A stretch of 64,000 bases of DNA from Lingula anatina (lineage: Eukaryota > Animalia > Brachiopoda): NCBI GenBank assembly GCA_051362555.1, contig CM120646.1:19468001-19532000 (forward strand), in the 5' to 3' direction. The first letter of the stretch is position 1, and the number at the start of each line of letters is the position of its first letter. The translations under genes were made by a program, and so were the position numbers. Below the pieces are notes generated by a model. The model was not told the DNA's origin. It did no database searches and saw nothing but the letters and a program-made list of their open reading frames with translations. This document shows positions 20,494-63,975 of the stretch, one piece after another.

Positions 20494-21415
20494 TTATGCA
20501 GATTTGTTAAAAATCTGTTCATCTTCATCAAAAGTGTCATCCTCCATGTTAAGAGAATGGTAAAGTCGGTCTCTTTCATTATTATTGGCATTTTTATTCC
20601 AAGGCAAGTGGTCTCGCCATGAAGGGCTGACTGACGGAAGATTTTCTACGTCTTCCTAAAAGAGAAAACAATAAATTTAGCGTCACAAAATATATCGTTC
20701 TTTAACCACAACTGGACAAAAGTCTAAATAATCTCAAATGCAATGCTTTGATAAAAACTTGAATCCATTCTGGGTCCAAGATAAAAGTAATTTTTTTTCT
20801 TTTAATCTACTTTATTATGTTCATATACTATTGTTCATATAATAACAAGTTTGTTATACTACAATTGTGCAGAACAAAACCATGCAGATTTCATAATGAA
20901 TTGTACTAACTTCTTTCTTCTTTAATTCTGTGTCAATGTCCTCCATTAGGGCATCTTCTGCTGTTTTCTGAAACAAGTATGTTATCATTTCAAAATATAT
21001 TACAGACAGACAATGTGCATTAGACCTTAAAATATAGAATTTATTTTTTTGAAATTAAAACAATTCTTCCTTATCTCCAAGGTATACCCCATCCAAAACT
21101 GCTGGGAAAATCACAATCTAGTAACCCATTCTTAAGTTCTTAATTTATATTTTTAACATGAGAGTGACATTAAGAAGTTCCTATATCCATTATGAGATGG
21201 TTTCAATGACTAGAAACTCACAATTTGGTTCTTTATAAAAGTCGGCACTAGATCTTAACTCTGCAACTGTATAACATCTACAAAACTACTTAATTTCTAC
21301 AAAACTCACCTCCACTTCTGAATCGCTTTCATCATCACCATTCCATTTGATTCTTTTGTAAGTGGGCTCCTCTTCACTAAAGGTGTGTCCGCTGATGGGT
21401 TTTTTGTCTTCATTT
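20494..21415 (-). CDS. Cytoplasmic tail exons (21310..21415, 20911..20967, 20494..20655)
   Basis: RNEDKKPISGHTFSEEEPTYKRIKWNGDDESDSEVE|KTAEDALMEDIDTELKKKE|EDVENLPSVSPSWRDHLPWNKNANNNERDRLYHSLNMEDDTFDEDEQIFNKSA*; donors GTGAGT and GTTAGT. Confidence 0.75.
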
Positions 21416-24400
21416 CTGTTGGACAGACAAAACACAAATATAAAGAGTAGGCAATATATATCAGATGAAGTTACAGAAATAGTGTTGATCAAATTTTGTA
21501 CGAGCTTGTCTAACATTTTTATGTTATGTTTCAATGTAGACACTGACAGTAGAGTTATTCTTTAAAATAAATAAATAAATAAATAAATAACTCATATTTA
21601 AATTGACAAGATGCAAAATTTTCTTCATAAAGAACAGTTCATTTTCACATTTTGAAAATCTAAGCTTGTCTCAAAAACAGATGGATTTGTACCTTTTGTA
21701 ACAGTACATCATTAGCAACACTCCGCATAAAATGATGAACAGAGAGACGGCACCAGCAATGCCGATTATGAAGGTTTTGCTAATCTTCTTTTCTACATGC
21801 TTCTTTGTGGGAGTCATTTTAGTTGGCACAGGTGTAGCTGAATTTTAAAAGGTGAAACAAATTTGTTTCAGCAGCTTACAGGTATTAATGGTGTTCAGTT
21901 TAAAAAAACAACTTACTCTCAAAATTTTCTCATAACTGTTATTTTAATAGTTTTTTAAATAAAATTGTTTACTTTTCTGAATGCTGTGGGCAATTCATTG
22001 AAAAATAAAATTGTCCACCATGCATTTCAACACATGAGCTTTATGCAATTGTATCCATCTGAAAATTTGAATAATCCTTTTCTTTTAAATGAAAAATAGC
22101 TTGTTGTGTAGACCTTATATATCAGATAACATCTGAGCTGCACTAATGCTAGTTCCTTTGGATTTGTATTACTATAAAAATGAATTGTGGTCAAAAATTA
22201 CACTTACCATCTGGAATTTTTGCTTTCACATTTTCAACTTTAACTATCTTCGGCTTAATTTCTGAGAAGCAAAATTTAAAAAAAAATAGTGAATAAAAAT
22301 AATAAAATAACTAAAACAATTCACAATCTTCTACCTGCTATAGTTATTTGTTTATATTAAAGGACCGATTTACGAACTTTGTGTTGAAAAATATCAAATA
22401 ATTAGCAGAAATTTAGCTGTTCAATTGTTTCTATCTGGAAACTAAGGCATGCTCAATAATCAAATTTCTCAAAATGCTGTATTGGGGAAGGTCTAAGTGT
22501 GCTGTGTCATAAAAATCTCCACCCCCCCCTCACCCCCATTCTGCCTATACAGCATCTGCTGGTGCACATCTCATACACTTAACACAGAAAAAAATATACT
22601 CACTTTCACACTTGTGTGTCTTTCTTCTTCCAACCCTGACCTCCCTGCATATGTCTCCTTTCTTGCATGGGTTGCGAGCACAAGGATGTCTGACAGTCTG
22701 ACAGCGTGCCCCCACCACGCCAGGAGGGCAGCGACAACTTAATCCAGTCTTTGTGTTCTAAAAAGAGGTGAAAGATAAACAGCTTAAGATTTCATGTAAA
22801 ATTATCATTGTGGCAACTTAGTTTAAAAAAAAAAGGCCTGTGATCATGTGATTGATAATATTTTATACTCACTTTCCACATCTCACACACACACACACAC
22901 ACTGTCACCAGAAAGAATAGAAAGAAAAAAAAACAACAATAACTCCAAGCAATTACATTTGAAATACATCAACAATAAGTTTTTAAAAAATTAAAAAAGT
23001 GAATCCACACCTGACAGACCCCTCTGTTCCTGCAAGGATGTTGAGCTCTGCTACAGTAATCCACAGTTTCACAGTTCAGTCCTGAAGTAAACCTGGGACA
23101 CTGGCACTTGTAACCTTCTGATAAACTTTCGCACCTACAATAAAAAATGCAGCAAACTGTATCTAAGTAAATGGTGGTAATGAGGAGGAGGGGGGAGGGG
23201 TTAGGGGGGTTGCCTTATTTATCATGTTGGGTGTACTCATAGGGTAAAAAGGTTCACTTTTGCAGAAAAAGACCCCCTACCCTTTAAAGATGCCAGTCAC
23301 AGATCTATTTGAAGAAACGAAATTAATACCATAACATCTGAAACAAACAGTATAAATATACATTTTTAACATTTTAATGACAATGCAAATCAAATTAAAA
23401 CTTTTAAAAAATCTCAGAGCAACTTGTAACCTTTTAGTTACACTGACATTAAGTGACCTTCATATAATCCAGTGATTTTACCTTCCATTATTCTTGCATG
23501 GTCTTGAGACACAAAAGTTGACTTGCTTTTCACAGAGTGTCCCAGTAAATCCGTCACGGCATACACAGGCATACCCAGGGCCTCCTTTCTTTGCCAAAAC
23601 CTCAAGATCTGATGGTACACAGTCTGCACTGTTCTTGCAAGGGTTGCTCTTGCAAGGATTCAAGTCAAACTTTTCACACCGTTGGCCAGTGAAACCTTTT
23701 GGGCAGTCACAGACAAAGGCCAATGCCCCTTCTGAAGCAGGAGATGCCGGGATACTGCATTTTCCACCATTTTTACATGGCTGGGTGGCACACACACCTA
23801 TTCTTCTTTCACAGTTTCTTCCAGCAAACCCTTTTGGACAGAGACACATGTATATTCCATACCTATCATCTTTTGATTTTAAGCACCTCCCTCCATTTTG
23901 GCAAGGTTTCCCATTGCATGGGTGTGTTGGGTTTGATTGTGTGGGTTTACTTTCGGTTGGGTTATATTCTGGAGGTGCAACTTCCACAGGAGCAGCTGTG
24001 ACAAGGACACTTTTCATGATCTCGCAGAATTTCCCTGTAAACCCTGCTTTACACTGACAGTGGAAGGTGGATGAGACTTGACTGGTACTGTTCAGATGCG
24101 TGACACACTTGGCATTGTTCTTGCAAGGGTGACTGACACATGGGCTGGACCTGGCATCCTGGTCACACAGGTTGCCATAGAAACCAGGAGGGCATTTGCA
24201 CACAAAACCATTCCGCCTGTCTTCACAGATTGCATTCCCTTTGCAAGGCCGGCTGAAACACTCATTGATCTCAAATTCACACACTTTTCCTGTCAGACCT
24301 TTCGGGCAGACACAACGGAAATCACCAGCGGAATTGACACAAGTGCCACCCATTTTACAAGGATGGCTACTGCACCTAATAAAATAATAATAATTTACTC

Positions 24401-27400
24401 AGCTGGCTTCTGATAACTGATTTCTGTCGCAAGCTGTTAAAATGAATACATGTTAGCTAAGAGCATACTGAAAAATAAATACAGTAATCTATTAGGTAAG
24501 AATGAGTGAGAATCAAAACTTGGAACCACCATGAGGCCAACACTCCTTAAAAATTGAATACATTTAAAGATTAACATTCTCCTGTTGCTAGATTAATTTA
24601 ATTATAAAATGCTAACCTGTGCAGGTTTATCCCACAGAAGCGCCCAGTCCATCCTTTCTGGCACTGACACCGGATCATCTTCCCACTTTGATCCTCTTTG
24701 CAAGAGCCGCCATTTTTGCAAGTGTCACTGCGGCAAGTGTGAATGGAGACCTCACATCTTTCTCCCATGAATTTGGGAGGGCACTTACAGACAAAGTCAT
24801 TGAGGCCGTTCACACAGGTGGCTGCATTGTGACAAGGAGAGGATGCACAGTGGTCAGCAGTGGATTCACAGTGTTTCCCGTGGAAGCCGTCTCTACACCT
24901 GCACCTAAACCCATTGATGCGGTCTATACATTGGCCACTATTCATACAAGGGGAGCTCTGGCATTCATCGATGTTCATTTGGCAAAGGTGGCCAGAGAAG
25001 CCAGGTCGACAATGGCACTTGAATTTGTTTGTACGGTCCAAGCAGGTGGCTCCATTCACACAAGGTCTACTCAGGCACTCATTGATGTTAACCTCACAGT
25101 TGCTCCCTCTATATCCGGGTCTACAGTGACATCTGTATCCATTGACCAAGTCCCGACATGCAGCTCCATGTCTACATGGACTGCTTTCACACTCGTTGAT
25201 GTTAATCTGACAGAGGTGACCCCTATAGCCCTGTTTACACTTGCAACTAAAACCATCCACTTGGTCCACACATGAAGCACCATTTCTACATGGTCTGCTC
25301 AGACATTCGTTGATGTTCTTTTCACAGTGCACTCCAGAAAATCCCTTAGGGCAGACACAATTGTAGCCATTGATCCCGTCTTTGCATCTGCCATTGTTTT
25401 GGCATGGAGAGCTGTAGCATTCATTTATGTCAAAACTACAGATGGCACCAGTATAACCTGGCTTACACAGACAAGAGAAGCCATTTAGTCTATCCAGGCA
25501 ACGTCCACCATTGCGGCAGGGGTTACTTGCACATTCATTAATGTTTGTCCCACAATTGCGCCCTGTATATCCAGGTGTGCAAGAACACTTGTAGTCTCCT
25601 ACTAGATCAATGCAGGTCCCATGTTTACAGGGTGAATTCTTGCAATCATCAATATTATCTTCACAGTGGGAGCCAGTGTAACCCTTCTGGCAATGGCAAG
25701 TATAACCATTAGGCTTGTTGACACACTTTCCACCATGCAGACAAGGTTGGCTACTGCATTCGTTGGTATTAATCTCACATGTTTTCCCTGTGTAACCAGT
25801 TGTACACTCACACTTGAACCCATTGACCATGTCCTTACATCTGCCAGCGTTCTTGCATGGTTTGCTTAGGCATTCATCCATCTCCAGCTCACACAGCTTC
25901 CCCGTGTACCCAGGAGGACAAAGGCATTTTATGCCCTCAACTAAGTTCACACAGGTACCTCCCTGTCTGCAGGGATTGAGGTTGCAACTGTTTAGAACAA
26001 CCTCACAATTTTTCCCAAAGAATCCAACAGGGCAGATACATGTGTAGTTACTTTTTCCAGTGGAGTGACAAATTCCACTGTTCTGACAGGGTTTCTTGGC
26101 ACATACCCCTTTTGTAATCGCCTCATGGACAGAAGTCTGACAGTACTGACCAGCAAAACCAAGGGGACATTGGCAAGCATATCCTTTAGATGTCCTGTAG
26201 CATTTTCCGCCATTTTTGCATGGTCTTTGACGGCAGCCCTGTACACCTAGAGATGGCAATAACCGATGTTGGCAATTTTTGCCATGATAACCAAGCTGAC
26301 ACTTGCACCAATATCCCGATTTTGACCCATAACACTGTCCATGGTTACCACATGGGGAGCTCTGGCATGCATTCTCAGGGTGCTGAACCCGGCTGCGACA
26401 GTTGGGACCACCGAATCCTGGTTGACATATGCAGCGGTAATGAAAACGCCTATTGACACATTTACCTTTATTCAAGCAAGGTGAGCTGGAACACTTGTGG
26501 TTTTTGGTCATGGTTTCACAATACTTCCCTGTGTAGCCATAGCGACACATACAGATATGGTTTGATCCTCCGGAGACACAAGTACCTCCATGTTGGCATG
26601 GGTGGCTAGAACACACATCTACAGGGAGCACTAAATAGATAACAAAAGACTTATTTGAGGACTGCATGTTGTAGAAAAGAACATTTTGACAACAAATCAT
26701 TTCAGTACAGCAGACCTAACAATATTCATGTTCTTGGATAATGAAAAAGAGAGAACCAGGGAAAATATTGCCTATCACTTTTGATAATGTATGCTAAAAT
26801 GTTTATCAGCTGCTTGACCTTTCAAACTCCAATTTTAAATCTATCGGACAACAATTCTAATAATAAAATATGTTATGAAGTCTCAAAGACTACAAAAATC
26901 AAAATACTTTCAACTATGACCCTTACTAGGATGCTTTCAGTGTTTAGAAAAAGTTGCAGTAACACTTGCCAAATAAAGAGAGAGCAGATATATGTGACTA
27001 CAAAATGATGGATGCATAAATTCCACAGATTTCACAGGAACATACAGAAATGACATTTTCAATGTTTGCCTGACTGAAGTGATTTTAAAAGATGTAAGAC
27101 ATGAATGCTGTCATATGTTACAAATATTGAAAGTTTACCTGCAATGTGGCTGGCTTTAACCTTAAGATCTTTGGCCTTCTTCTGCAGTTGTTTCACTTTT
27201 TTCAACAATGCTGGTCTTTGTACTGCTTTCACTTTCATTTTCAGAGCCTGGGCCTTAAGATACCGAGACCAAAACTTGAGCCACTTCTTCAGTATTACTT
27301 TTTTAAGGAATGGCTTGGCGACTGTTAGTTTTCCAGCCTTCTGTTTGTAATTCTTGACTCTTCTCTGGATGGTTACAACTTTTGATTTCAACATGGGCTT

Positions 27401-30400
27401 TTTAGGTAATTTCCTTTTCAGATTGGCAAGCCTTTTAAGCAGAACCCTGTACCTTTTAAGCCACCTCCTTCTTTCAGTGTTAAGTTTGTGCTTTAGCTGC
27501 CTTGCATGACCCTTCATCCATTTTAACTTAAAGGACTTTAAACGTAACAATTTAGCCATCTGGGCAAGCTTATTAGACTTTGCCTTAAGTTTTGGATTCC
27601 TTGCACTGATGTGTTTTAATACCCTTGAATCCCACTGTAATTTCCTTGCCTTAAATTTCAACCAAAATGCTTTGCTTATTTTTTTGCTCAGCAATTCTGC
27701 CTTTTTGCTCAAGGATATCCATTTGCTGCCTTCTTGAATAAGTTTCTTAGCATGGTTTCTCAATTCTGTGACTCTTGCTTGCAAGATACTGGAAATATTC
27801 TTTTGCCCTTTAACTTGGCCAAGTTTTGCCTCTAATTTTCTAGCAAGGTTCAGAAGATAAGTGCCTTTTATAACCTTCTGTCTCAAATTTTCTACTCTAG
27901 TAGTCCACTGTAGTACTTTTTGAACTGACCTCTTTTTCCATAGGAAATGCTTGCGTTTGGCCTTTGACATGCTTACCAAAGCCTTTGCCTTCACAGATTT
28001 AGCCTGCAGAACTTTCATCTTCTTTACTAAAGCATTAAATCTTCTTTCAAGGGCCTGTATCTGTCTGGTTCGTTTTTTCGTCTCCTTTTTCTTGATGATG
28101 TGTGACAACTTCCTCTGAATCTTCATTAATGTTTTGTTATTAAGAAGATTGTTTCTGGATATTCTATGGTATTCCTTTGTTCTTCTAGTAATTTCCACAT
28201 TGAAAAGGGACTTCTCAACTTTAAAGATATTTCTCTGCAATTTTTTGGCAGTTTTTGACAAGTGGTTTGACTTTCTAAGAAGTTGTCTGCATCGTGTGTC
28301 CTTTTTCATCATTCTTCTTATTTTTCCCTTGACCTTTCTCAATTTGGGTTTCAAGGCTGGTCTACTTATGGCTTTCTTTCTTAACACCTTTAAGCGTCTG
28401 CGTAGCTTCTTCAATTTCTTTTTATTTACTTTACTTTTCCTTGCTTTCCTTCGAAGAAGTTTAGCTCTCCTAAACAAACTATGTGATTTTTTCTGTAGAA
28501 GCTTTATTGTCACCATCTTAGGACGCTTGGATATTTTCTTTCTGCTTAATTTTATTTTCCTAATTTGGAGTATCCTAGCTTTTCTGGACAAGAGCCTCGA
28601 TTTTCTCATGAGTATTCTGCCTCGTTGGATCTTTTTCTTCATTATTTTCACTTTTCTCTTGACCTTTCTCAATTTGGGTTTCAAGGCTGGTCTACTTATG
28701 GATTTCTTTCTTAACACCTTTAAGCGTCTGCTAAGTCTCTTCAGTTTCTTTTTATTTACTATAATTTTCTTTGCTTTCCTTTGAAGAAGTTTAGCTTTCC
28801 TGGACAAACTATTTGATTTTTTCTGAAATAGCTTTCTTGTCAAGATCTTTGAATGCTTGGATATTTTCTTAGCTTTTCTGGACAAGCGCATAGATTTTCT
28901 AAGTAGTAATCTGCTTAGTCTGATCTTTTTCTTCATCATCTTCACCTTTTTCTGGACCTTTCTCAATTTGGGTTTTAAGGCTGGTCTTCTTCTGGATTTC
29001 TTTCTTAACACCTTTAAGCGTCTGCTTAGTTTCTTCAATTTCTTTTTATTGACTTTACTTTTCCTTGCTTTCCTTTGAAGAAGTTTAGCTTTCCTGGACA
29101 AACTATGTGATTTTGTCTGTAGAAGCTTTATTGTGTGCACCTTTGAACGCTTGGATATTTTCTTCCTGCTTATTCTTCTTTTTCTAATTTGCAGCATCTT
29201 AGCTTTTCTGGACAAGCGACTTGATTTCCTAAGGAGTAGTTTGCCTCTTCTAATCTTTTTCTTCATTATTTTCACTTTTCTCTGGACCTTTCTCAATTTG
29301 GGTTTCAAGGCTGGCCTTCTTCTGGATTTCTTTCTTAACACCTTTAAGTGTCTGCTTAGCTTCTTCAGTTTCTTTTTATTTACTATAATTTTCTTTGCTT
29401 TCCTTCGAAGAAGTTTAGCTTTCCTGGACAAACTACGTGATTTTTTCTGTAATAGCTTTCTTGTCAGCATCTTTGAATGCTTGGATATTTTTTTAGCTTT
29501 TCTGGACAAGAGCCTTGATTTTCGAAGAAGTATTCTGACGCGTCTGATCTTTTTCTTCATAATTTTCACTTTTTTCTGGACCTTTCTCAATTTGGGTTTT
29601 AAGGCTGGCCTTCTTCTGGATTTCTTTCTTAACACCTTTAAGCGTCTGCTTAGTTTCTTCAGTTTCTTTTTATTGACTTTACTCTTCCTTGCTTTCCTTT
29701 GAAGAAGTTTAGCTTTCCTGGACAAACTATGTGATTTTTTCTGTAGAAGCTTTATCGTGTGCATCTTTGAACGCTTGGATATTTTCTTCCTGCTTATTCT
29801 TCTTTTCCTAATTTGCAGCATTTTAGCTTTTCTGGACAAGCGACTTGATTTTTTAAGGAGTAGTTTCCCTCGTCTGATCTTTTTCTTCATTATTTTCATT
29901 TTTCTCTGGACCTTTCTCAATTTGGGTTTCAAGGCTGGTCTACTTATGGATTTCTTTCTTAACACCTTTAAGCGTCTGCTTAGCTTCTTCAGTTTCTTTT
30001 TACTTACTATAATTTTCTTTGCTTTCTTTCGAAGAAGTTTAGCTTTCCTGGACAAACTCCGTGATTTTTTCTGTAATAGCCTTCTTGTCAAGATCTTTGA
30101 ACGCTTAGATATTTTCTTAGCTTTTCTGGACAAATGCCTAGATTTTCTAAGAAGTAGTTTACTTTGTCTGATCTTTTTCTTCATAATTTTCACTTTTTTC
30201 TGGACCTTCCTCAATTTGGGTTTCAAGGCTGGTCTTCTTATGGATTTCTTTCTTAACACCTTTAAGCGTCTGCTTAGTTTCTTCAGTTTCTTTTTATTGA
30301 CTTTACTCTTCCTTGCTTTCCTTTGAAGAAGTTTAGCTTTCCTGGACAAACTATGTGATTTTTTCTGTAGAAGCTTTATCGTGTGCATCTTTGAACGCTT

Positions 30401-33400
30401 GGATATTTTCTTCCTGCTTATTCTTCTTTTTCTAATTTGCGGCATCTTAGCTTTTCTGGACAAGCGCCTTGATTTTCTTAGGAGTAGTTTCCCTTGTCTC
30501 ATCTTTTTCTTCATTATTTTCACTTTTCTCTGGATCTTTTTCAATTTGGGTTTCAAGGCTGGCCTTCTTCTGGATTTCTTTCTTAACACCTTTAAGCGTC
30601 TGCTTAGCTTCTTCAGTTTCATTTTATTTACTATACTTTTCATTGCTTTCTTTCGAAGAAGTTTAGCTTTCCTAGATAAACTGCGTGATTTTTTCTGTAA
30701 AAGCTTTCTCGTCAAGATCTTTGACTGCTTGGATATTTTCTTTGCTTTTCTGGACAAGTGCCTTGATTTTCTAAGAAGTATTCTGATGCGTCTGATCCTT
30801 TTCTTCATTATTTTCACTTTTTTCTGGACCTTTCTCAATTTGGGTTTTAAGGCTGGTTTTCTTATGGATTTCTTTCTTAACACCTTTAAGTGTCTGCTTA
30901 GCTTCTTCAATTTCTTTTCATTTACTTTACTTTTCCTTGCTTTCCTTCGAAGAAGTTTAGCTTTCCTGGACAAACTACGTGATTTCTTCTGTAGAAGCTT
31001 AATTGTCAGCATCTTTGGACGCTTGGAAATTTTCTTTCTGCTTATTCTTCTTTTCCTAATTTGCAGCATCTTAGCTTTTGCGGACAAGCGCCTTGATTTT
31101 CTCATGAGTATTCTGCCTCGTTTGATCTTTTTCTTCATCATTTTCACTTTTCTCTGGACCCTTCTCAATTTGGGTTTCAAGGCTGGTCTTCTTCTGGATT
31201 TCTTTCTTAACACCTTTAAGCGTCTGCTTAGCTTCTTCAGTTTCTTTTTATTTACTATAATTTTCTTTGCTTTCCTTCGAAGAAGTTTAGCTTTCCTGGA
31301 TAAACTATTTGATTTTTTCTGTAAAAGCTTTCTTGTCAGCATCTTTGAACGCTTGGATATTTTCTTAGCTTTTCTAGACAAGCGCCTAGATTTTCTAAGA
31401 AGTAGTTTGCTTTGTCTGATCTTTTTCTTCATATTTTTCACTTTTCTCTGGACCTTTCTCAATTTGGGTTTTAAGGCTGGTCTGCTTATGGATTTCTTTC
31501 TTAACACCTTTAAGCGTCTGCTTAGCTTCTTCAATTTCTTTTTATTTACTTTACTTTTTCTTGCTTTCTTTCGAAGAAGTTTAGCTTTCCTGGACAAACT
31601 ATGTGATTTTTTCTGTAGAAGCTTTCTTGTCAGCATCTTTCGCAGATTGGATATTTTCTTTCTGCTTATTCTTCTTTTTCTAATTTGCAGCCTCCTAGCT
31701 TTTCGGGACAAGCGCCTTGATTTTCTCATGAGTATTCTGCCTCGTTTAATCTTTTTCTTCATTTTTTTCACTTTTCTCTGGACCTTTCTCAATTTGGGTT
31801 TCAAGGCTGGTCTTCTAATGGATTTCTTTCTTAACACCTTTAAGCGTCTGCTTAGTTTCTTCAGTTTCTTTTTATTTACCTTAATTTTCTTTGCTTTCTT
31901 TTGAAGAAGTTTAGCTTTCCTGGACAAACTACTTGATTTTTTCTGTAAAAGCTTTCTTGTCAGCATCTTTGAACGCTTGGATATTTTCTTAGCTTTTCTC
32001 GACAAGCGCCTAGATTTTCTAAGTAGTAGTTTGCTTTGTCTGATCTTTTTCTTCATAATTTTCATTTTTTTCTGGACCTTTCTCAATTTGGGTTTTAAGG
32101 CTGGTCTTCTTATGGCTTTCTTTCTTAACACCTTTAAGCGTTTGCTTAGCTTCTTCAGTTTCTTTTTATTTACTTTACTTTTCCTTGCCTTCCTTCGAAG
32201 AAGTTTAGCTTTCCTGGACAAACTACGCGATTTTTTCTGTAAAAGTTTTCTTGTCAGCATCTTTGGACGCTTGGATATTTTCTTTCTGCTTATTCTTCTT
32301 TTCCTTATTTGTAGCATCCTAGCTTTTCTGGACAAGCGCCTTGATTTTCTCATGAGTATTCTGCCTCGTTTGATCTTTTTCTTCATTATTTTCACTTTTC
32401 TCTGGACCTTTCTCAATTTGGGTTGCAAAGCTGGTCTTCTTCTGGATTTCTTTCTTAACACCTTTAAGCGTCTGCTTAGTTTCTTCAGTTTCTTTTTATT
32501 TACCTTAATTTTCTTGGCCTTCCTTAGAAGAAGTTTAGCTTTCCTGGACAAACTACTTGATTTTTTCTGTAAAAGCTTTCTTGTCAGCATCTTTGAACGC
32601 TTGGATATTTTCTTAGCTTTTCTGGACAAGCGCCTAGATTTTCTAAGTAGTAGTTTGCTTTGTCTGATCTTTTTCTTCATAATTTTCATTTTTTTCTGGA
32701 CCTTTCTTAATTTGGGTTTTAAGGCTGGTCTTCTTATCGCTTTCTTTCTTAACACCTTTAAGCGTTTGCTTAGCTTCTTCAGTTTCTTTTTATTTACTTT
32801 ACTTTTCCTTGCCTTTCTTCGAAGAAGTTTAGCTTTCCTGGACAAACTACGCGATTTTTTCTGTAAAAGTTTTCTTGTCAGCATCTTTGGACGCTTGGAT
32901 ATTTTCTTTCTGCTTATTCTTCTTTTCCTTATTTGTAGCATCCTAGCTTTTCTGGACAAGCGCCTTGATTTTCTCATGAGTATTCTGCCTCGTTTGATCT
33001 TTTTCTTCATTATTTTCACTTTTCTCTGGACCTTTCTCAATTTGGGTTGCAAAGCTGGTCTTCTTCTGGATTTCTTTCTTAACACCTTTAAGCGTCTGCT
33101 TAGTTTCTTCAGTTTCTTTTTATTTACCTTAATTTTCTTGGCTTTCCTTAGAAGAAGTTTAGCTTTCCTGGACAAACTACTTGATTTTTTCTGTAAAAGC
33201 TTTCTTGTCAGCATCTTTGAATGCTTGGATATTTTCTTAGCTTTTCTGGACAAGCGCCTAGATTTTCTAAGTAGTAGTTTGCTTTGTCTGATCTTTTTCT
33301 TCATAATTTTCATTTTTTTCTGGACCTTTCTTAATTTGGGTTTTAAGGCTGGTTTTCTTATAGCTTTCTTTCTTAACACCTTTAAGCGTTTGCTTAGCTT

Positions 33401-48400: not shown

Positions 48401-50482
48401 TGAACGCTTGGATACCCTCTTTCTTCTGTTTCCTCTTTTTCTCAATTGCAGCATCCTAGCCCTTCTAGACAAGCGCTTAGATTTTCTACGAAGTCGTCTG
48501 CCTCGTATGATCTTTTTCTTCATTCTTTTCACTATTTTCTTGACCTTTTTCACTTTGGGTTTCAAGGCAGGCCTTCTTCTGGATTTCCTTTTTAACACCT
48601 TTAAACGTCTGGTCAGCTTCCTGAATTTTTTCTTGTTTACTTTAATTTTCTTTGCTTTTTTTCGAAGACGTCTAGCTCTTCTTCTCAAACGGCGCGACTT
48701 TCTTTGTAGTCTCTTTCTTTTTAATATCTTTGAACGCTTGGATACCCTCTTTCTTCTGTATCCTCTTTTTCTCAATTGCAGCATCCTAGCCCTTCTAGAC
48801 AAGCGCTTAGATTTTCTACGAAGTCGTCTGCCTCGAATGATCTTTTTCTTCATTCTTTTAACTATTTTCTTGACCTTTCTCACTTTGGGTTTCAAGGTAG
48901 GTCTTCTTCTTGATTTTCTTTTTAACACCTTTAAACGTCTGGTCAGCTTCCTGAATTTTTTCTTATTTACTTTAATTTTCTTTGCTTTCTTTTGAAGACG
49001 TCTAGCTCTCTTTTTCAAACGGCGCGACCTTCTTCGTAGACTCTTTCTTTTTAATATCTTTGAACGCTTGGATACCGTCTTTCTTCTGTATCCTCTTTTT
49101 CTCAAGTGCAGCTTCCTAGCCCTTCTAGACAAGCGTTTGGCTAGCTTCCTAAATTTTTTCTTATTTACTTTTATTTTCCTTGCTTTTTTTCGAAGACGTC
49201 TAGCTCTTTTTCTCAAACGGCGCGACTTTCTTCGTAGACTCTTTCTTTTTAATATCTTTGAATGCTTGGATACCCTCTTTCTTCTGTATCCTCTTTTTCT
49301 CAATTGCAGCATCCTAGCCCTTCTAGACAATTTTCTACGAAGTCGTCTTCTTGATTTTCTACTTATAATTCTTTTCCTTGTAGCTACCTTTGTCCTTGAA
49401 CGCCTTGACTTTTGCTTTGCAATTCTTCGTCTTGCTCCAACTGACTTTTTCTTTGAGCTTCTTACAGACTTGTTTCTAGCAATTTTAACTCTCTTAGCAG
49501 CAGTTTTTGGTCTTTTACGTCTTCTAGATTTTCTCTTTAGAAGTCCTCTTTTTCTTGTAGCAGTCTTAGCTCTGGACTTTCTGCGTTTTCTCCTACTTCT
49601 GTTGTTGACGATTTGTGATGTTTTTACCTAAATGTAGTAAAGATTTTATTAACCTAATTTCCTGAACCAAATACAGTTTTGATCTTGTGAAATGTTTACA
49701 TGTTCAGAGGACTCTGGCTGTGTTGCACAAAAACAACACTGCAGGCCTTCTTTAAGTCTAATTGCAGTACGAAATATGTTCATATTAGGGTTTTATTATT
49801 TTTATTAGGAAATATTGAAAGCTTTGTAGGCAATAAATGTGACCATGGAAGATTTTTTTAAATGGGTGGAGAGAACCTTTAAACTATCTATTTAAGAAGG
49901 CTCTCTGATATATATAAACATGTGCACAGATTTCAAGCAACAGTAATTTTTTTATAATAACAGCTAAGAATTAGAAATTGTAACAACATAAGTCACATAA
50001 ATGTGAACACTTTTACACTCCTATTTTAAGCTTTAAAAAGCTTTGTTGATATTATGCTCAAAGCACAATATAGATATCAACTGCATGTTGCACTTTGCAA
50101 AGAATTAACACTGACTTTTACCACAGAAGTATACCACCAGCAATTTGTTTACAAATGCAGAAATGGGGGATGAACTCGTGGAGTGGTATGAAAAAGGATG
50201 ATGCTATGTTTACAAAACCTACATAATCAGATTCAGAATATTCATCAAGACTTGTAATATAACTAAAAGGTTCCACATGATGATTTTTAATGTATACCAC
50301 CAGCAATTTGTTTACAAATACAGAAATGGGGGATGAACACGTGGAGTGATATGAAAAAGGATGATGCTATGTTTACAAAACCTACGTAATCAGATTCAGA
50401 ATACATCAAGACTTGTAATATAACTAAAAGGTTCCACATGATTTTTAATTGACAGCAGCAGTCACATGACTAGGCTGCAACA

Positions 50483-53500: not shown

Positions 53501-53765
53501 GCTAAATAGCTGTCAGCCGGGCGGACACGAAAGTTAATTACCTCCTTACAGCTTGTAGTAGGCGGGACGGACATTTAAGTCGGATTATCTGAAAGTAATC
53601 TAGTGAGACTCCCCGCGGGGATAGATCGATCTAAAACCTATGGGAATAGAGCCTTAGTGTCAAGGCTACAGTACAATGTACATTTGCAGGGTTCTCCCCA
53701 GGATTTGAAAATAGCCCTTTTTTTTTTTACGCGAGAGTACCGAAGCTCGCGAAGCGAGGCACAAA

Positions 53766-53800
<35 letters not shown>

Positions 53801-56800: not shown

Positions 56801-59800
56801 AGTATATGACTTCCTATTCAAGTTCAATAGTAACTACGGACCTATCTCTGCCAGTTTTGGAGATAAAAGGAAAGCAAAATTTGCAAAATTCAGTTCATGG
56901 TGAAAAGTAGGTCAAAGGTCAATTTTAATGTCACATATAGATTGCCAGTATATGACTTCCTATTCAAGTTCAATAGTAACTACGGACCTATCTCTGCCAG
57001 TTTTGGAGATAAAAGGAAAGCAAAATTTGCAAAATTCAGTTCATGGTGTAAAGTAGGTCAAAGGTCAATTTTAAGGTCACATTTAGATTACCAGTATATG
57101 ACTTCCTTTTCAAGTTCAATAGTAACTATGGACCTATCTCTGCCAGTTTTGGAGATAAAAGGGAAGAAAAATTTGCAAAGTTCAGTTCATGGTGAAAAGT
57201 AGGTCAAAGGTCAATTTCAAGGTCATAGTAAGATTGCCAGTATATGACTTCCTATTCAACTTCAATAGTAACTATGGACCTATCTCTGCCAGTTTTGGAG
57301 ATATAAGGGACTAGATGTTATAATTTTGGAATTACCATAATGTGCCTTAAATTTCGTACAGAAAAAAATTAATTAAAATAAAGAAAATGTCATTTTGGTC
57401 AAAATTCTTGAAATAGGAGGTGCTCTGAAGTTTCAGAAGTTCAAATTTGATGAAAAAATGTCATTTTTGAACACAAGTTGTCTGCTTTGCCAAGCCTTAT
57501 GTTTTATTTTTCCAGAGTTCAAAATTTATTATCCATTACCGTACTGCACATTTTGCTTTTACCACCAATATGTACTTTTTGATAGAGCGTAACTCGAAAA
57601 CCGTATGGAATACAAAAAAACCGAGACCACCTCCCGTGTTGGGCTTTACATGCTCTACAAAATGCAAAAAAGAATGGGTCTCTAGCATTAACGGTTCCCG
57701 AATTAGAAACAGTTTTAAGTTTCGGTATCTTATGGCCGCTACTCCCGTGAAAATGCACCGATTGACCCCAAATTCATGGAGATGAAAGATGACCTGAAGG
57801 GTAACACTTTCCAATAATATTATTGGTTAAGTCTGTGTGGTGTCTGAATAACAGGGCAAAAAAATTTTTTTTCGTAAAAAATTTCATTTTTTTGAAAATT
57901 TTGGCCCATTTGACCTTGAATTAGAGGTCAAAGGTCAAATCCAAGGGTATATTTGAAATCTACACATATGACTTTTGGAAAGCCGTCTATAGAAATTTTT
58001 CCCATAACTCCTTCCGTAGGGTAGATAATTAGCATTTAATTTTGCCATTTTTAGACAAGGGTGCATTGCAATGAGTGCCACACCCAGACCCCAATACCGA
58101 CAAAGCCCAAATTTTACGTGGAACGAGTTGAGATTATAGGTGACCTAAATCCATGAGATGGGTACGGGGGCCCTTACCGTCTAGGAGGAGAAGCGGTAAC
58201 GGTAGCCGTCCGGCGGAGCCGGCGGAGCCGGCGGAACGATCCGGACGGGACCGAAACCATGTGTACCGCCAGCGCTAACGCTAACGCTAACGCTGGTGGT
58301 ACAATAAAAATAAACAACTTAACGCGCACACAAGAGATCCAAGTACGTACACAGTCGTTTTTATTTTACGTCGCGACTGTCAGGAATAAAGGCATTAAAG
58401 ACAGTCTCAGCGCGTTAAACCCTTAAAATAGCACGAAATTGAATTTTCCTGGAAAACTCACCAATTTCCCCATAATGACCAAGGTATATCCTATCCAAAA
58501 CCGTTCAGAAAATGAAGCTACCTAATACCGTTTTTAAGTTCCATTAAATAATAAAAGACGACTCGTCTTAAATACTCAGCTACCACCTCACAGTACGGCT
58601 TCAGAACGCGCAATTTCTCGCTAAGTCTCGTGGTTTACTATGAATGAAGTACTACGGCTGAGACCCGGATGTTACTATTTGGCGCCAAAACAGCAAACAT
58701 GGCTCAGACGCGCGTCAAGTCTGAACAGGAGAGCGACAAAAGGGGGCGAAAGAAAATAGCCACTCCAGTTCGAAAGACACGAAAGAAAATTAGAGACAGA
58801 CGAAGAAGCACTCAGACTGTGTATGTTGGGAGGGAGGTGGGGCGGTGGAGGACACTTAAAGCTGAGTTAGGACTCACATACGAGGCAATGGCGAAACTAC
58901 TCCTCGACACGTGAGTATGCGCTTCACACGTCTCAAGTGTGTCTGATTATCATATTATCCTGTTCACAATAAATGACAATACTTGTGCTCATACAAAGTT
59001 GGTTACGTGTATAAGAGCGTTTTGGGCTTACGTTTTCTGTTTTTGATCGGTACATGTACCGAAAAGATGGACAGGCGGCACTTATATGTCTGACAAGTTT
59101 CGCTGTGTAGTCGTGACGTCTATCTCATGCTGACTGAATCCTGCTGTGATTGGTCGTAAGCGTGGGAAAATCGAGGTCGTGACCTTGAGCCGGAAGTACT
59201 TCTGGCTGTGCTCCGAAATCATGATAAATAGTTTTCGTTTTCTAATTCTTTATTCTAGTTGTCTTAACAGGACTTTTGTGACCCAGACTTATTCATATAA
59301 TAATAAACAATCTCCCAAAACACAAATCTGAGCAAAGTTTTACATAGAACCTGCTTCTATACATTAATCTAACCCACTGAGTTGTCCTTTAAAGGCATTG
59401 GTCACACACACACTCTTAAAGGGGCTCTTTCCGATATGAGGGAAAATAAAACATATCCCAAACTTTTTCTTATATATGAAGGTCACGATCTAAACCAAAA
59501 TTCGCCTTTGAGGTAGACGGCAATCAAAATAATTAATTATTTCACATTCGAGTCTGTATTGGAGAACGTCCTCTCCCCAAAAAAGAGAAGACGACTACCG
59601 CAAGGTTTTAGCCAATCAGAGTGCGTTGCCTAAAATAGCACTCGTACACTAGGAGAAACAAATATGGCGCGGTGGAGTTCGAAGTAAGTCGTTTACAGAT
59701 GCACGTTAGTTAAAACTCTCTCCCTTCATTGTTCGTGAACAGGTTTGTGCACTTAAACATTTAAAGAATTCATTTAACTTCTCGTCGGTTAAAATAGTCC

Positions 59801-62800
59801 AAAAATCAACGAATGACTTGGAAATATTTACGACGGAGTGTAGCCTATTATGTCAACAGTGCTTGATGCCGTAATTCTCAATGCCGATTCACCGAATGAG
59901 TAACTTGTACCAGGAAATATACCGGTGACATGATTAGAGACAGTGATATTTTTCGGGTCAACTGAACCAGCCCTTTTCGGTTGGATATTTATTAACGACT
60001 GTTACTTTTTTTGTTGTTTGCTATGCTTTCTGAGCCGCAATTTTGACATCGCGATTTGCACGCACAGCGTAGCACGGACTACAAATGCGTTCCAGACGAT
60101 TTTGATACTTACTGGCAGTAGTGGTGAGCATCGTGCAGATGTCAAAATCGTCAATAGAAGTGCCTGAATTTTGTGCTACGCACACACGTATCTTATCTTG
60201 CTTTTCTAGTCGATCTGTTTTTATACTTTTCAGATCGAGAGTAGGCCCAAGTTTTTCGGGTCAACTGAACCAGCCCTTTTCGGTTGGATATTTATTAACG
60301 ACTGTTACTTTTTTTGTTGTTTGCTATGCTTTCTGAGCCGCAATTTTGACATCGCGATTTGCACGCACAGCGTAGCACGGACTACAAATGCGTTCCAGAC
60401 GATTTTGATACTTACTGGCAGTAGTGGTGAGCATCGTGCAGATGTCAAAATCGTCAATAGAAGTGCCTGAATTTTGTGCTACGCACACACGTATCTTATC
60501 TTGCTTTTCTAGTCGATCTGTTTTTATACTTTTCAGATCGAGAGTAGGCCTATTGTTGATGAGGCAAGCAGTCAGAGCAGTCCAGAACTAGAGGGTAAAG
60601 AGCTCCCTGAGGTAAAGAGTTTTCTGTTATTTTTAAATAATACAGGCCTTTTAGTTAATCTGGCATATTCCTTAGTTTTGATAGTAATGTGTAGGACCCA
60701 CCTTACCCTCACCTATATTCACATGTAATAATCCACACATACAAAAAACTTATAGTTTAGGGATAACAATTGATACGCTTGAGTGCAGATTAATGATTAA
60801 TTGAAGTGAAACCCATTTTGAACAGTTCACAACATTATTACTAGCATGCAATTAAATCAGTGCCAATTATTATTATTATTAGTTTTATTATTATTTTACA
60901 GCATACTATCTTGTGATGTCAGCCTCATTAGAAAAAAAGCCCTGTATAAAGGTTTAGTAGAGTTGGCAGTGATACATAGCACTTCTAGGTCCAGTAGTGC
61001 AAGGCTTGGAAGAGGTGTGAGATCAGGAGGATTGACTCAAGAACATGAAAGGAGAATTCAGTAACTCACAGAAGAGGTATAAAACTCATTAAATCTTTAT
61101 TGAAAAGATAAATTCTAAGTTTCTTACAATACACAAACACCATTCATATTCCTTCTTATTTTCAAAGTAAATTTATTCGATAAAATTTGGTGGTGTGAAA
61201 TCCAGTCCTTATGGTTGTTTTAGTGTTCATACATTTTCAAATATTTTATTTTTGAAGTAAGCTATTGTACATATCAAAACAGAAATGACAGATATAAAAG
61301 TGAATATATTTTTTTCATTATCAGAGCATACATGATGGTGTTGCCAAGAAAATGACGGTGTTGCCAAGGAAAGTGCTGAATACATTGTGACAAGTGTGAT
61401 GGAAATCCTGGCCTTGCACTGGATATAAAGATGCTTTTGCTAGAGAATTTACCAAGCAATGACTCAGCATCAGTGGAGATGGGACTGGCCCATCTCCCAC
61501 TCACTGTAATGTCCCCTACTTTTTGACTGCCGTTGAATTTTCTGGATTACTTCACTTTGAAGAAAATCACAGAATAACTATTACCACGAGTATCAGTTTA
61601 CTGACCAAACATTCATAAGACCTGTAATATGCAAGTCACTGAGTAGAAGGATTCTTTTCATTCTACTGTAATTTGTGCAACCATTCAGTGAACATAAAAA
61701 ATAAAGGCATAGAAAAACAAGGTGCTTTCATTTATCCCTTTCTCATATCAAAAGTAAAATGCAACTCTGTACACAATCTGTTCATAAAATCAATCATTTT
61801 AAAAGTTAATGTCATACAAGGAAATAATGTATGTCTGGATGGATTTATAAAAGAAAAGTTTATGTGAGGTAATCATCATTTTGATAAAAAAATTCTTATA
61901 TATATAAGGACCACGGTGCCTCGAGTCTCTTGGTTCCATCTGCAGCATGGCTGCTTAGAAATGTGTACTTGTAATTCCCATGTCAAATTCCTGGTTTGTA
62001 AGACTGGAATGTACCTTTATTTGTGCTAATTGTTTATGTAACAGCTTGAGGTCTTACTGTCATCCATGATTTTGAGTGCTTGCTTTGCTGCTTAGTATAC
62101 CTAAAAACAAAACATTGACTATTGGAAAGACTTCAATGCATTTTTTTGTGAAATTAATAGCACCCACTATCTGTAATGTCTACGCCAGACATAAGAGCAC
62201 TGAATAGAGCATGGTTATCAAAATTAATTGTTTCAAAATCCAATTTATTATATAATGTTCCCCACAATAAGTACTGATATCCTGTGCTTGTCACAATTCT
62301 AGGACTAGCTGCCATGGCAGTGTTAAACTTTATAATAAAATGGCATTGTTCCAAGTACTAACATGCATTAGATTGATATTGATGGCAAGGTGTACTGAAC
62401 ATGGTAAAATAAACAGCTATTGTGTGTTTGGATTCTGGGTGTCAGGTACTTACTTTGGCTCTGGCTCTATGTTGGCCTTGAACCTGATGTAGGGGTAGAT
62501 GTTACCACATGAATATTACCTGGATAAAAAAATATATACCAGTGTATTATCCTCATTCTCCAGAGAATCCCCATGAAGTCAACTTTAAAAACGTAAACAG
62601 AGAATAAACATTTACTACCATCAGATGCTGCAATTAATGTGCTCGCTTTAAATCTTTTAATTTAAATTAAATTCGAATAAGGTAAATAGTGAAAGGTTGT
62701 TTTTTCTTTTTTTTTTTTTTTTTGGACTTGAGGATATAACGACGTTAAGTAAGCCGACAAAAACCAGTCTTTAATAGAAGACTATTTAGCTTGTTTGTAC

Positions 62801-63975
62801 TGACTGCTCTAAAGAATAATAAACTTTTCTGCGTACAGCAGGGATAACAGGGGCGGATCCAGAGATATTTAATATTTTCTGACAGTCTTCCCAGTAATGT
62901 TGATCCATCCTCCATTTTTGACCGCCTTTCAACAGAAATATTACATATACCCGCCAATGAAAACTTGAAAATCTAACCGTCTTCCGGAAGAACCAGAAGA
63001 TGCCCTAAATCCGCCTCCTGAATATGTTCTCAATGAAAGAGTCGGACGTGATAAGAGATCGAAATAACCTACCCGTATCCGGCAGAATTTTGTCAGTTTC
63101 TCGCTTGTCAGTTTTATTTCCTACTTCTGCTTTGTCTACCTCACCGGCCTGCCAATGAAAATAACATCCTCTGCTTCTGCATTTCCCGTTTTATTTCCTT
63201 TTTCATTGTCCCGTAGAGTTTTTCTTCTCTCTTTCAACTCACGTGTACTCGGACTACCCTCCATCTTGGTTTGCAGTGACATCCGGGTCTTCTCCAGAGC
63301 GTAGTAAACAGTAGTATTCAGTCATATGCAAATTGAGGCAAGTCCCAGAATTCCATGCATAGGGGAGTAATGGCGAGAAGTTTAGACGAAAAAAAAATGC
63401 TGCGCTTTTTTTTCTTTAAGTGATCTTAAAAACCTATACCTCGACCTTTATTTTCTCAATGGTTTTGTGTGAGACATGCTTTGGGGTTCAGGATCAAATA
63501 GGCAAAGTTTCAGAGAAAGGCCTATTTAAGCGTCTACAGCGGAAAGACATCCTTTAAAGGGTATCGGAGTTCAAAGAAGCGTATCGGCAAAAAAAGTAGC
63601 GTATCGGCAAAAAAAAATAGCGTATCGGGGCCGATACGCTATAAAGGCCTGGGGAGAACCCTGATTTGTATACACAGCTCAGCTGGGCCAATTAAATCAA
63701 TTACCTGTGTCATGTGTATTTGGAAGTTAGTGGCTTGATTTTAGATTTGGTGTAGTGTTAATGTTTTGTAAGTATATATTCTAGCTCAGGTATCATTTAA
63801 TTGACATATAACTTAATGAAATTAATTTGAAAAATGTTAAATTCTGTGTTTTCCTACTGTATTTCACGTTACAATATGAATAAAAATAAATATTGTTACC
63901 TTTTTTTTGTTAATTTACATTTAGGATCTGGCATTTTCCCACCAAGCCACACTGAATGATTGGGTGCAAGTAAAT
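20494..63975 (-). CDS. Giant type-I membrane protein, 5'-incomplete: Cys-containing N-terminal part + ~7,500 aa K/R-rich repeat region + 25 EGF repeats + TM + acidic tail. Model: complement(join(20494..20655,20911..20967,21310..21415,21693..21837,22208..22261,22604..22757,23011..23134,23482..24375,24617..26630,27139..49627,51000..51142,52994..53070,63900..63975)), about 8,830 aa visible
   Basis: 13 exons with GT-AG sites, phase-matched at all 12 junctions and without internal stops; EGF modules are rejoined correctly across introns. The three 5'-most exons are less certain; no start codon or signal peptide seen in the window. Confidence 0.8.
21693..21837 (-). CDS. Transmembrane exon
   Basis: ATPVPTKMTPTKKHVEKKISKT-FIIGIAGAVSLFIILCGVLLMMYCY-KR: hydrophobic stretch followed by basic stop-transfer residues; phases 1 and 2 match neighbours. 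Confidence 0.85.
22208..24375 (-). CDS. EGF repeats 18-25, a truncated 4-Cys EGF and juxtamembrane stalk (exons 23482..24375, 23011..23134, 22604..22757, 22208..22261)
   Basis: Six-Cys EGF spacing; CVSRPCKNNG(R)|CESLSEGYKCQC and CRNRGVCQ|NTKTGLSCRC are completed only by the predicted splices. Confidence 0.9.
24617..26630 (-). CDS. Single exon encoding 17 tandem EGF-like repeats, nine with calcium-binding-type N-terminal consensus (NINEC, NIDDC, EMDEC etc.)
   Basis: ORF 24598..26700; acceptor TATTTAG|TG before 26630 (phase 1; in-frame alternative at 26618); donor CAG|GTTAGC after 24617. Confidence 0.93.
27139..49627 (-). CDS. 22,489-nt exon encoding ~7,500 aa Lys/Arg-rich tandem-repeat region
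   Basis: Uninterrupted frame from acceptor ACATTTAG|GTA (49627, phase 0) to donor GCAG|GTAAAC (27139, phase 1, matching the EGF exon); includes track ORF 27059..49330. Confidence 0.85.
28330..49330 (-). repeat. Coding tandem array of roughly 65-70 units of 330 bp (110 aa) and 294 bp (98 aa), including a 624-bp higher-order repeat
   Basis: Recurring RP(A/S/T/V)LKPK and KIKVNKKK motifs; periods read from homologous positions: 43593/43923 (330), 37520/38108/38696/39284 (588 = 2x294), 33776/34400/35024 and 29078/29702/30326 (624). Confidence 0.95.
50129..50449. repeat. Two-copy tandem duplication, ~163-bp period, intronic
   Basis: GTATACCACCAGCAATTTGTTTACAAAT at 50129 and 50292 with near-identical continuation. 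Confidence 0.9.
50484..50517. repeat. (TA)n microsatellite
   Basis: About 17 TA units. Confidence 0.95.
51000..51142 (-). CDS. Exon upstream of the giant exon
   Basis: Acceptor CTAAACAG, donor CAG|GTTAGT; open frame EGEQFSKCTYKVLGCLSHATHQGEAKVVKKNPPGTSLNVLRSSQHCSQ; phase 0 end matches the giant exon. Confidence 0.7.
52156..52457. mobile_element. Fold-back MITE, PIF/Harbinger (Tourist)-like, TTA TSD
   Basis: Arms of ~130 bp are near-perfect reverse complements (GATCGCATTCACAACGAGTTGAGCCAGGC... / ...GCCTGGCTCAACTCGTTGTGAATGCGGTC); TTA at 52153-52155 and 52458-52460. Confidence 0.85.
52994..53070 (-). CDS. Putative upstream exon
   Basis: (R)QSKRKIKRKVFIHFKQSKCMGQSSE; donor GAAG|GTAACA phase 1 matches exon 51000..51142; alternative acceptor at 53081. 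Confidence 0.55.
53176..53300 (+). mobile_element. Diverged left-end fragment of the same HINE-like family as 55544..58308
   Basis: AACTAGA..TCAGAGAGGC.ATAC...TATTGTACCACCAGCTG...GCTTGACAAGCT shared with 55544..55680. Confidence 0.6.
53439..53653. mobile_element. Degenerate Harbinger-like MITE
   Basis: Imperfect TIRs CCCTATTTCCA / TGGGAATAGAGCC with subterminal TAGATCGA motifs; TTA on both flanks. Confidence 0.45.
53766..53815 (+). repeat. Poly-G tract (~50 nt, one interruption)
   Basis: Seen directly; length may be a sequencing artefact. Confidence 0.85.
55544..58308 (+). mobile_element. Non-autonomous Helentron-associated (HINE/DINE-1/pearl-like) element with internal satellite array
   Basis: Left end AACTAGA, small hairpin GAGGCG-ATAC-CGCCTC, sub-TIR TATTGTACCACCAGC (55579-55593); right end has CCGGCGGAG mini-repeats and a hairpin TGTACCGCCAGCG...CGCTGGTGGTACA whose arm is the matching sub-TIR (58292-58306); internal tandem array. 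Confidence 0.7.
55750..57309. repeat. Tandem array of a 146-bp unit, ~10.7 copies
   Basis: Unit starts (GTAGGTCAAAGGTCA) at 55750, 55894, 56040, 56186, 56332, 56469, 56615, 56761, 56907, 57053, 57199. Confidence 0.95.
58399..59388 (+). mobile_element. ~1-kb TTAA-flanked element (Kolobok-like) carrying a first coding exon
   Basis: Imperfect TIRs ttaaAGACAGTCTCAGCGCGTTA versus reverse-complement ttaaAGGACAACTCAGTGGGTTA; internal ATG 58699 reading MAQTRVK...TVYVGREVGRWRTLKAELGLTYEAMAKLLLD ending at a GTGAGT donor. Confidence 0.5.
59420..63553. mobile_element. ~4.1-kb decayed Kolobok-like DNA transposon
   Basis: TIRs AGGGGCTCTTTCCG / CGGAAAGACATCCT (11 of 14 match); TTAA at 59416-59419 and 63554-63557; possible degenerate THAP-like fragments on + near 60080-60190 and a disrupted minus-strand frame starting near 63264. 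Confidence 0.55.
59949..60550. repeat. Apparently perfect two-copy tandem duplication, 303-bp period
   Basis: 59949..60247 is repeated at 60252..60550 with a 4-nt CAAG spacer. Confidence 0.95.
63900..63975 (-). CDS. Putative 5'-most visible exon of the giant gene
   Basis: T-rich tract and AAG acceptor; LLAPNHSVWLGGKMPDPKCKLTKK(R); donor AG|GTAACA phase 2 matches the acceptor at 53070. Confidence 0.5.

Follow-up and report, generated by a model that had tools for sequence, protein, structure and literature searches.

Introduction

Adhesive proteins in which thousands of residues form repeats rich in lysine and arginine (K/R), encoded by very long exons, are described from flatworms as ap1 and ap3 (Macrostomum, Minona and Theama). 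Mlig-ap1 of Macrostomum lignano, with 5,407 amino acids (aa), carries more than 3,600 residues of K/R regions around lectin, vWD-C8-TIL and 17 EGF modules; it is secreted, adhesion depends on it, and attachment is prevented by heparin (PMC6410801). Flatworm ap1 is a product of adhesive gland cells. Theama has its basic part on a secreted protein of its own, 3,700 aa long, for which anchorage through a membrane protein of the anchor cell has been proposed (PMC9229212), and the basic adhesive regions of flatworms escape short-read assemblies (PMC8621496). Here, we describe a locus of the brachiopod Lingula anatina, located in a stretch of 64,000 nucleotides (the window; GenBank assembly GCA_051362555.1, contig CM120646.1, positions 19,468,001 to 19,532,000, forward strand), in which a K/R-rich domain twice as long as that of ap1 is probably spliced to exons for 25 EGF modules, a predicted membrane helix and an acidic tail. 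All positions below are those of the window.

The Lingula protein is similar to flatworm ap1 and ap3 in its thousands of repetitive K/R-rich residues and its very long exon; if the phase-compatible join to the EGF exons is used, an EGF array would stand on the same chain, as in Mlig-ap1. A preliminary description of the window, made from the letters alone, had set the polycation apart as a composition typical of nuclear proteins and had not recognised the architecture; given the secreted K/R giants joined to EGF arrays in flatworm adhesives, this contrast overstated the novelty, and Mlig-ap1 is a precedent that had been missed (PMC6410801). The differences are nonetheless considerable. No C-type lectin or vWD-C8-TIL core was found in seven pieces of the model and 76 minus-strand upstream frames. 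The repeats of ap1 are Gly-rich (GRK/GRKHS), whereas Gly makes up 0.4–1.8% of the Lingula basic domain and a quarter of its residues are large hydrophobics in a helical period. Tmed-ap1 and ap3 are described with a signal peptide and no membrane helix, in contrast to the membrane helix and 109-aa sorting tail predicted here. Judged by its sequence, the Lingula protein is not an ap1 member, because no lectin/vWD core was found, Gly content is low and a membrane helix is predicted, and the two are likely convergent, with no sequence homology shown. By analogy, it would combine polycation and membrane tether on one chain.

As in Notch, Crumbs, Delta/Jagged, SNED1 and fibropellin-type arrays, EGF modules of the Notch type precede one membrane helix in the Lingula model, but these modules are basic instead of acidic, and the tail is unrelated. 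The EGF exons match EGF families alone and the tail has no Pfam match in the pieces scanned, so that neither the LNR/NOD nor the ankyrin repeats of Notch are seen. Crumbs ends in a C-terminal ERLI motif and has laminin-G domains between its EGF modules; in the Lingula protein no laminin-G match was found and the C-terminal sequence differs. The MNNL and DSL domains of Delta/Serrate/Jagged were found neither in the model nor in the upstream frames scanned. Mussel foot protein 2, an EGF-repeat cohesive protein of the plaque that is named in a flatworm adhesive paper (PMC6410801), has basic EGF modules as well; compared by description, it is small and secreted and has no giant basic domain or membrane helix. 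Membrane mucins place a giant repeat ectodomain, encoded by one exon, on EGF modules and a membrane helix, with repeats that are rich in serine, threonine and proline (S/T/P) and polyanionic by glycosylation. The Lingula protein would be their charge-reversed counterpart.

Results

Gene model

Ten exons on the minus strand, from 49627 to 20494, are separated by nine introns that all have GT-AG boundaries, and their phases chain into a single frame of 8,732 aa (1.064 MDa), the sole stop of which is terminal. The features of the model are as follows.

27139..49627, minus strand: giant exon of 22,489 nt and 7,496 codons, with a basic N-terminal piece, about 64 repeat units and a unique linker
28343..48901, minus strand: repeat zone within the giant exon, with 65 anchors and Tandem Repeats Finder (TRF) arrays of period 330 and 294
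27139..28330, minus strand: unique basic linker of 397 aa, 32% K+R, Trp-bearing, predicted helical
26631..27138, minus strand: key intron of 508 nt, phase 1, GT-AG
24617..26630, minus strand: EGF exon, modules 1–17 (Pfam PF00008, 17 stretches)
23482..24375, minus strand: EGF exon, modules 18–23, a short S/T/P-rich spacer and the start of module 24 (Pfam PF00008, 6 stretches)
23011..23134, minus strand: exon with the end of EGF 24 and the start of EGF 25
22604..22757, minus strand: exon with the end of EGF 25 and a truncated 26th module (4 Cys)
22208..22261, minus strand: exon for a basic juxtamembrane stalk
21693..21837, minus strand: exon with the predicted transmembrane helix (21772–21704; residues 8599–8621)
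21310..21415, minus strand: tail exon with YKRI (YxxΦ, 21360–21349) followed by a serine-bearing acidic cluster (21336–21310)
20911..20967, minus strand: tail exon, acidic
20494..20655, minus strand: last coding exon with YHSL (YxxΦ, 20562–20551), acidic end and stop

The EGF array consists of 25 six-cysteine modules and the truncated 26th. A single stretch is strongly hydrophobic (19-residue window, hydropathy 2.8, residue 8600), and no window exceeds 0.75 before residue 7500. The tail of 109 aa is acidic, with 31 D/E versus 16 K/R, and holds two YxxΦ motifs; an AATAAA lies at 20431, 63 bases beyond the stop codon. The sequence bears out the 25 EGF repeats, the predicted membrane helix and the acidic tail of the preliminary description. 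The EGF modules are themselves unusually basic: their mean net charge is +2.0, compared with a median of −2.3 and a maximum of +0.9 in the EGF proteins compared, all 120 of which are lower.

The basic exon

The minus-strand frame is open from 49627 to 27062, stop to stop, over 7,522 codons, whereas the two other frames of the same strand contain 833 and 483 stops. The 7,496 residues of the exon include 2050 K, 1799 R, 8 D and 23 E, which amounts to 51% K+R and a net charge of +3,818, within the +3,500 to +4,000 estimated before, and the near absence of acidic residues likewise agrees. An R-rich half is followed by a K-rich half in which units of 98 and 110 aa alternate. The 65 anchors delimit 64 units, of 110 aa (37), 98 aa (21), 109 aa (4), 107 aa (1) and 176 aa (1), and the length differences are whole codons in every case. 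The early 110-aa units are 55–60% K+R and the 98-aa units 45–51%, in line with earlier hand counts of 60% and 49%.

The ratio of non-synonymous to synonymous substitution rates (dN/dS) between units of equal length is 0.395 for the 37 units of 110 aa and 0.366 for the 21 units of 98 aa. Among 165 substitutions seen in a single unit only, 68 are silent, and there is no stop where about 11 would be expected. Unit pairs are not independent, so these figures are descriptive. New acidic residues among the private changes number 6 versus about 8 expected, which is no clear deficit. Because dN/dS is 0.37–0.40, stops are missing from the private substitutions and lengths change by whole codons, the basic exon is coding and under selection, and it is almost certainly translated. 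Trace-level expression and the absence of exact single-exon products from the protein collection (none of six frames looked up) could be taken to indicate a satellite, a dead gene or an assembly artefact, but the dN/dS below 0.4, the lack of stops and the diverged units with higher-order structure speak against this, as do three reads of RNA run X1 that align to internal units of the K-rich half with a single mismatch in 106 bases. This explanation is largely refuted, and we hold it to be highly improbable. An assembly loop in particular is disfavoured, because the units are diverged and arranged in blocks, although the copy number of units may differ between alleles or be mis-assembled.

The K/R domain is predicted to form amphipathic helices. 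Large hydrophobics account for 25–33% of its residues, and hydropathy power peaks at 100–110 degrees, 1.3–1.6 times that of a single shuffle. Runs of at least four K/R are 5–16 times rarer than in 200 shuffles (59 versus 322 and 14 versus 223). AlphaFold2, run in single-sequence mode on 587 residues comprising the last units and the linker, returned long helices with short coil breaks (mean predicted local distance difference test score, pLDDT, 76; predicted template modelling score, pTM, 0.28), which lends weak support to an extended helical chain without a defined fold. If fully helical, at 0.15 nm per residue, the domain would have a computed length of about 1.1 micrometres.

Joining of the basic and EGF exons

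The donor at 27139 scores 8.2 and the acceptor at 26630 scores 1.6 on a simple matrix, with phase 1 on both sides. Ahead of the donor K+R content is 33%, and over the 26 codons of read-through it drops to 12%. The 508-nt intron between them has no match to AATAAA, ATTAAA or TATA, and holds a single CpG (observed-to-expected ratio, o/e, 0.08). Along the gene, the linker has a CpG o/e of 0.17, the EGF and tail exons one of 0.29, the K-rich half 0.50 and the R-rich half, where arginine codons contribute, 0.87; the value is 0.52 upstream and 1.16 in the stretch 58313–60550. A promoter-like island before the EGF exon is therefore absent, and the depletion runs unbroken through the intron, as the values of 0.17 (linker), 0.08 (intron) and 0.29 (EGF region) contrast with 1.0 in 1–19400. 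Gene-body methylation in invertebrates is the basis for reading CpG depletion in this way, and the pattern, which is as expected of one methylated gene body, suggests that such a body may begin near 58.5 kb. Taken together, the phase match, the drop in K+R, the intron free of poly(A) signal and TATA, the CpG pattern and the basic EGF modules favour one transcript, and we consider it probable that the main transcript joins the basic exon to the EGF-membrane exons.

Eight of nine species-labelled RNA runs were mapped, with 6–30% of the reads of each run and a mapped region up to 28550. The first four runs gave 8, 0, 17 and 0 reads on the gene, most of them on a short intronic repeat (23246–23277), and one read pair inside the linker. 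In the other four, single pairs fell on exon-bearing bins, at two places in X2 (sense), one in X8 and three in X9. Bins 26409–27742 are without depth, so that the joints seen among reads of a repeat at 9883–10226 are not this junction. The reads on the gene may reflect either trace transcription or stray DNA.

Relatives

The preliminary description had proposed to search related genomes with the unique segment 27139..28330. In the collections searched here, this linker has no homolog among 7,989 candidates of 696–2000 aa or among 1.84 billion representatives, no usable Atlas match and no match in the PDB. The named-protein search covered proteins up to 2,000 aa, so a long RefSeq model could escape it. 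Among the 120 of 306 matches listed for exon 24375–23482 (proteins of 521–2000 aa), there are only generic EGF proteins such as Notch, Crumbs, Delta/Jagged, SNED1 and those of fibropellin type, at 28–37% identity. In all 120, K+R stays at or below 23% in every 100-residue window and the tail is dissimilar; the best local match to the tail among them has an expect value (E) of 0.17. Lingula RefSeq proteins are in the collection, yet no identical Lingula protein of 521–2000 aa is among the matches listed; the gene is therefore unannotated, fragmentary or annotated at more than 2,000 aa. A literature search, with most subscription journals outside its coverage, found no publication on this architecture.

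Upstream stretch

Two features bear on the 5' end.

51000..51141, minus strand: candidate upstream exon with a phase-0 donor at 51000; no signal peptide, no Pfam family
58313..60550, strand not assigned: CpG-rich stretch (o/e 1.16), candidate divergent promoter

The CpG-rich stretch suggests a gene start near 58.5 kb, and a minus-strand ATG at 58473 inside it, with a phase-0 donor at 58462, could mark the first coding exon. Of the junction 51000/49627 proposed earlier, the donor holds up, as it is in phase and the strongest nearby (10.4), but a score of −6.8 marks the closest acceptor in frame as poor, and the exon is unverified. The extent to 63975 first given to the gene finds no support; it crosses the promoter-like stretch and transposon relics. 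Pfam searches of upstream frames (76 minus-strand and 74 plus-strand) returned nothing above cut-off, in a scan that would miss exons shorter than 38 codons or outside the window, and Rfam gave nothing at gathering score.

An assignment of exon 51141–51000 as the end of a C-type lectin rested on a mistranslation and was dropped. Two similar 120-nt blocks, 53181–53298 and 55552–55677, were rejected as exons because a frameshift separates them and because they bear the inverted end motif and the terminal hairpin that also mark the element at 55545–58312. This minus-strand, non-autonomous element combines a microsatellite and eleven tandem units of 146 bases with its hairpin and an inverted end motif of 15 bases, and is presumably of Helentron type; a second 3' end of its kind lies at 53181–53298. 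An inverted repeat at 52152–52461, with 138-base arms that are 93% complementary, resembles a miniature inverted-repeat transposable element (MITE), with Rfam matches below gathering score. At 59949–60550, 303 bases are duplicated in tandem with 100% identity, either very recently or as an assembly artefact. A plus-strand ATG exon near 59663–59683, together with exon-like pieces at 60537–60611, 60902–61014 and 61946–61993 in a CpG-depleted stretch, suggest a further plus-strand gene within 58313–62600.

Neighbouring Evx gene

The basic/EGF gene, on the minus strand, stands tail to tail with a plus-strand homeobox gene.

8752–16466, plus strand: Evx, homeobox gene with three coding exons

Over 224 aa, its last exon matches even-skipped of Lingula anatina (XP_013401617/XP_013401616) at 100% identity, with Novocrania second at 55%, which places the window in L. 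anatina or a very close form. Reads of runs X2 and X3 cover the Evx exons at low level and have their first mates on the minus strand; this establishes the organism and the strandedness of the RNA runs. CpG o/e is about 1.0 across this side of the window (1–19400). A small pile of X2 reads at 17460–17706, 3' of the Evx stop and on the same strand, is possibly a long 3' untranslated region of Evx or a separate transcript. The repeat at 9883–10226 mentioned above, in Evx intron 1, is 344 bases long and interspersed, attracts thousands of divergent RNA reads in four runs and is a high-copy family, like a short interspersed nuclear element (SINE) or a MITE.

Discussion

Our tentative reading, to which we give somewhat less than an even chance as a whole, is that the locus encodes one type I membrane protein whose K/R domain condenses polyanions, forming a cohesive glue that stays attached to the cell secreting it. 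The 25 EGF modules would then serve as a stalk for the amphipathic K/R domain of 7,500 residues, which would lie in the secretory lumen or on the cell exterior. Given the fusion, a luminal K/R domain is very likely; it requires a signal-peptide exon. The placement of the polycation outside the cell or in a secretory lumen, as first proposed, is still the best reading and is indirectly supported, though no signal peptide was found. Furin-type tails combine YxxΦ with an acidic cluster, and by likeness to them the tail motifs may route the protein via the trans-Golgi to secretory vesicles. The K/R domain would probably condense sulfated glycans or other polyanions, and a chain of about 1.1 micrometres could span the distance from a microvillar surface to a secreted gel. 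As ligand we would favour a secreted polyanion of a somatic gland, in pedicle or mantle mucus or as shell glycosaminoglycan, to which we assign about half of the remaining weight. The pedicle tip anchors with mucus. The Lingula shell contains glycosaminoglycans and apatite (PMC9057340), and EGF domain shuffling is frequent in Lingula (PMC4595640).

Several observations weigh against this reading. No read joins 27139 to 26630, and depth at the junction is zero in all eight runs, so that of the single spliced frame claimed at the outset the nine GT-AG introns, the phases and the 8,732-aa frame stand while this junction lacks read confirmation. The acceptors at 49627 (−0.7) and 26630 are weak on the simple matrix, on which another internal acceptor of the same gene scores −0.5. 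No convincing signal peptide and no confirmed 5' exon were found in 49628–64000, and a direct splice of the 58473 ATG exon to 49627 would yield no signal peptide. The searches made found no ortholog in which the fusion might be conserved. CpG depletion implies germline methylation, which suits a gamete gene at least as well. Finally, the supplement of a 2026 shell proteome contains no Evx-adjacent accession, a result that assumes adjacent numbering and comes from trypsin proteomics, which K/R regions escape. The searched parts of two Lingula shell-proteome papers do not mention a basic giant, and literature on Lingula pedicle mucus, sperm and larval adhesive yielded nothing relevant.

Could the same fused membrane protein, with the same polyanion chemistry, act in gametes, either between the sperm acrosomal membrane and a sulfated egg coat or in egg cortical granules? 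Near-silence in all eight runs, together with gene-body CpG depletion, which requires methylation in the germline, would fit, and the failure to find an ortholog is as for fast-evolving reproductive proteins. Cationic and amphipathic gamete proteins include abalone lysin/sp18 and sea-urchin bindin, and SPE-9 of C. elegans is a single-pass sperm protein with EGF repeats. However, the runs carry no tissue labels, so that their silence is no pointer to the gonad, long genes are often methylated whatever the tissue, and among the papers listed on brachiopod sperm basic proteins none concerns such a protein; we regard a gametic role as less likely than the glue reading, but as its main rival. The fused chain might instead be a precursor that convertases cut into many cationic amphipathic peptides with antimicrobial or membrane-active functions, for which the amphipathic cationic helices, 164 R-x-K/R-R sites counted in the basic exon and tail motifs suggesting trans-Golgi passage could be cited. 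Yet furin-type sites are scarcer than in shuffles (149 versus 194 in the R-rich half, 15 versus 60 in the K-rich half and none in the linker, in counts where repeat units are not independent). In antimicrobial polyprotein precursors the units are delimited by convertase sites and acidic spacers, but here no acidic spacer peptides occur (31 acidic residues in 7,496), expression is low in all mapped runs and a stalk of 25 EGF modules would be superfluous. A precursor is thus a distinctly improbable explanation.

A different arrangement would be two products, namely a giant nuclear protamine-like protein, with read-through of the donor as far as the stop at 27059, and an EGF-membrane protein made on its own. 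The frame is indeed open for 26 codons beyond the donor, the first 100 residues look protamine-like, neither a signal peptide nor a junction read was found, and an ATG at 26700 within the intron opens the EGF frame. Sperm nuclear basic proteins (protamine-like proteins, PL, and protamines) have about 50% K+R, are rich in serine and have almost no acidic residues, and in all three respects the Lingula domain is similar. In contrast, it is two orders of magnitude longer, shows hydrophobic periodicity and few long basic runs, and is likely joined to EGF modules and a membrane helix. Protamine-like proteins, which are nuclear and expressed in the testis, have a linker-histone winged-helix core, clustered basic runs and few hydrophobics, whereas here runs of four or more K/R are scarce, 25–28% of residues are hydrophobic and the charges are spaced by hydrophobics. 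No linker-histone Pfam match was found in the three pieces scanned (the N-terminal 542 aa, a 330-aa repeat sample and the linker; the remainder consists of the same units). Moreover, neither a poly(A) signal nor a mark of a promoter is seen in the 508-nt intron, its ATG is followed by no clear signal peptide, simple skipping of the basic exon is impossible because it is phase 0 in and phase 1 out, and the EGF modules are themselves unusually basic. Two separate products therefore seem improbable to us.

Of the roles suggested for the protein at the outset, a polyanion-condensing adhesive and a gamete-coat component are still candidates, while we favour a cationic defence precursor less, given that shuffles contain more convertase sites than the actual sequence. 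We consider the chances even that the tethered polycation represents an undescribed cell-surface class: a charge-reversed membrane mucin, a type I protein of megadalton size that presents an amphipathic polycation of micrometre scale and net charge of about +3,800, forms membrane-anchored coacervates with sulfated glycans or phosphate-rich polyanions, serves as burrow or settlement glue, gamete-coat receptor or phosphate-handling scaffold, arose independently of flatworm ap1 and was missed by annotation since a 22-kb exon defeats short reads and trypsin.

In conclusion, if the splice is real, the Lingula protein is an exceptionally large extracellular polycation and, among the published cases found, the only membrane-anchored one. 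It would represent a brachiopod convergence on the flatworm-glue design of K/R repeats plus an EGF array, and would be the first molecular candidate for lingulid adhesion or gamete binding, none having been found in the literature searched. It would also raise the question of how a chain with a charge of +3,800 is translocated and passes the Golgi.

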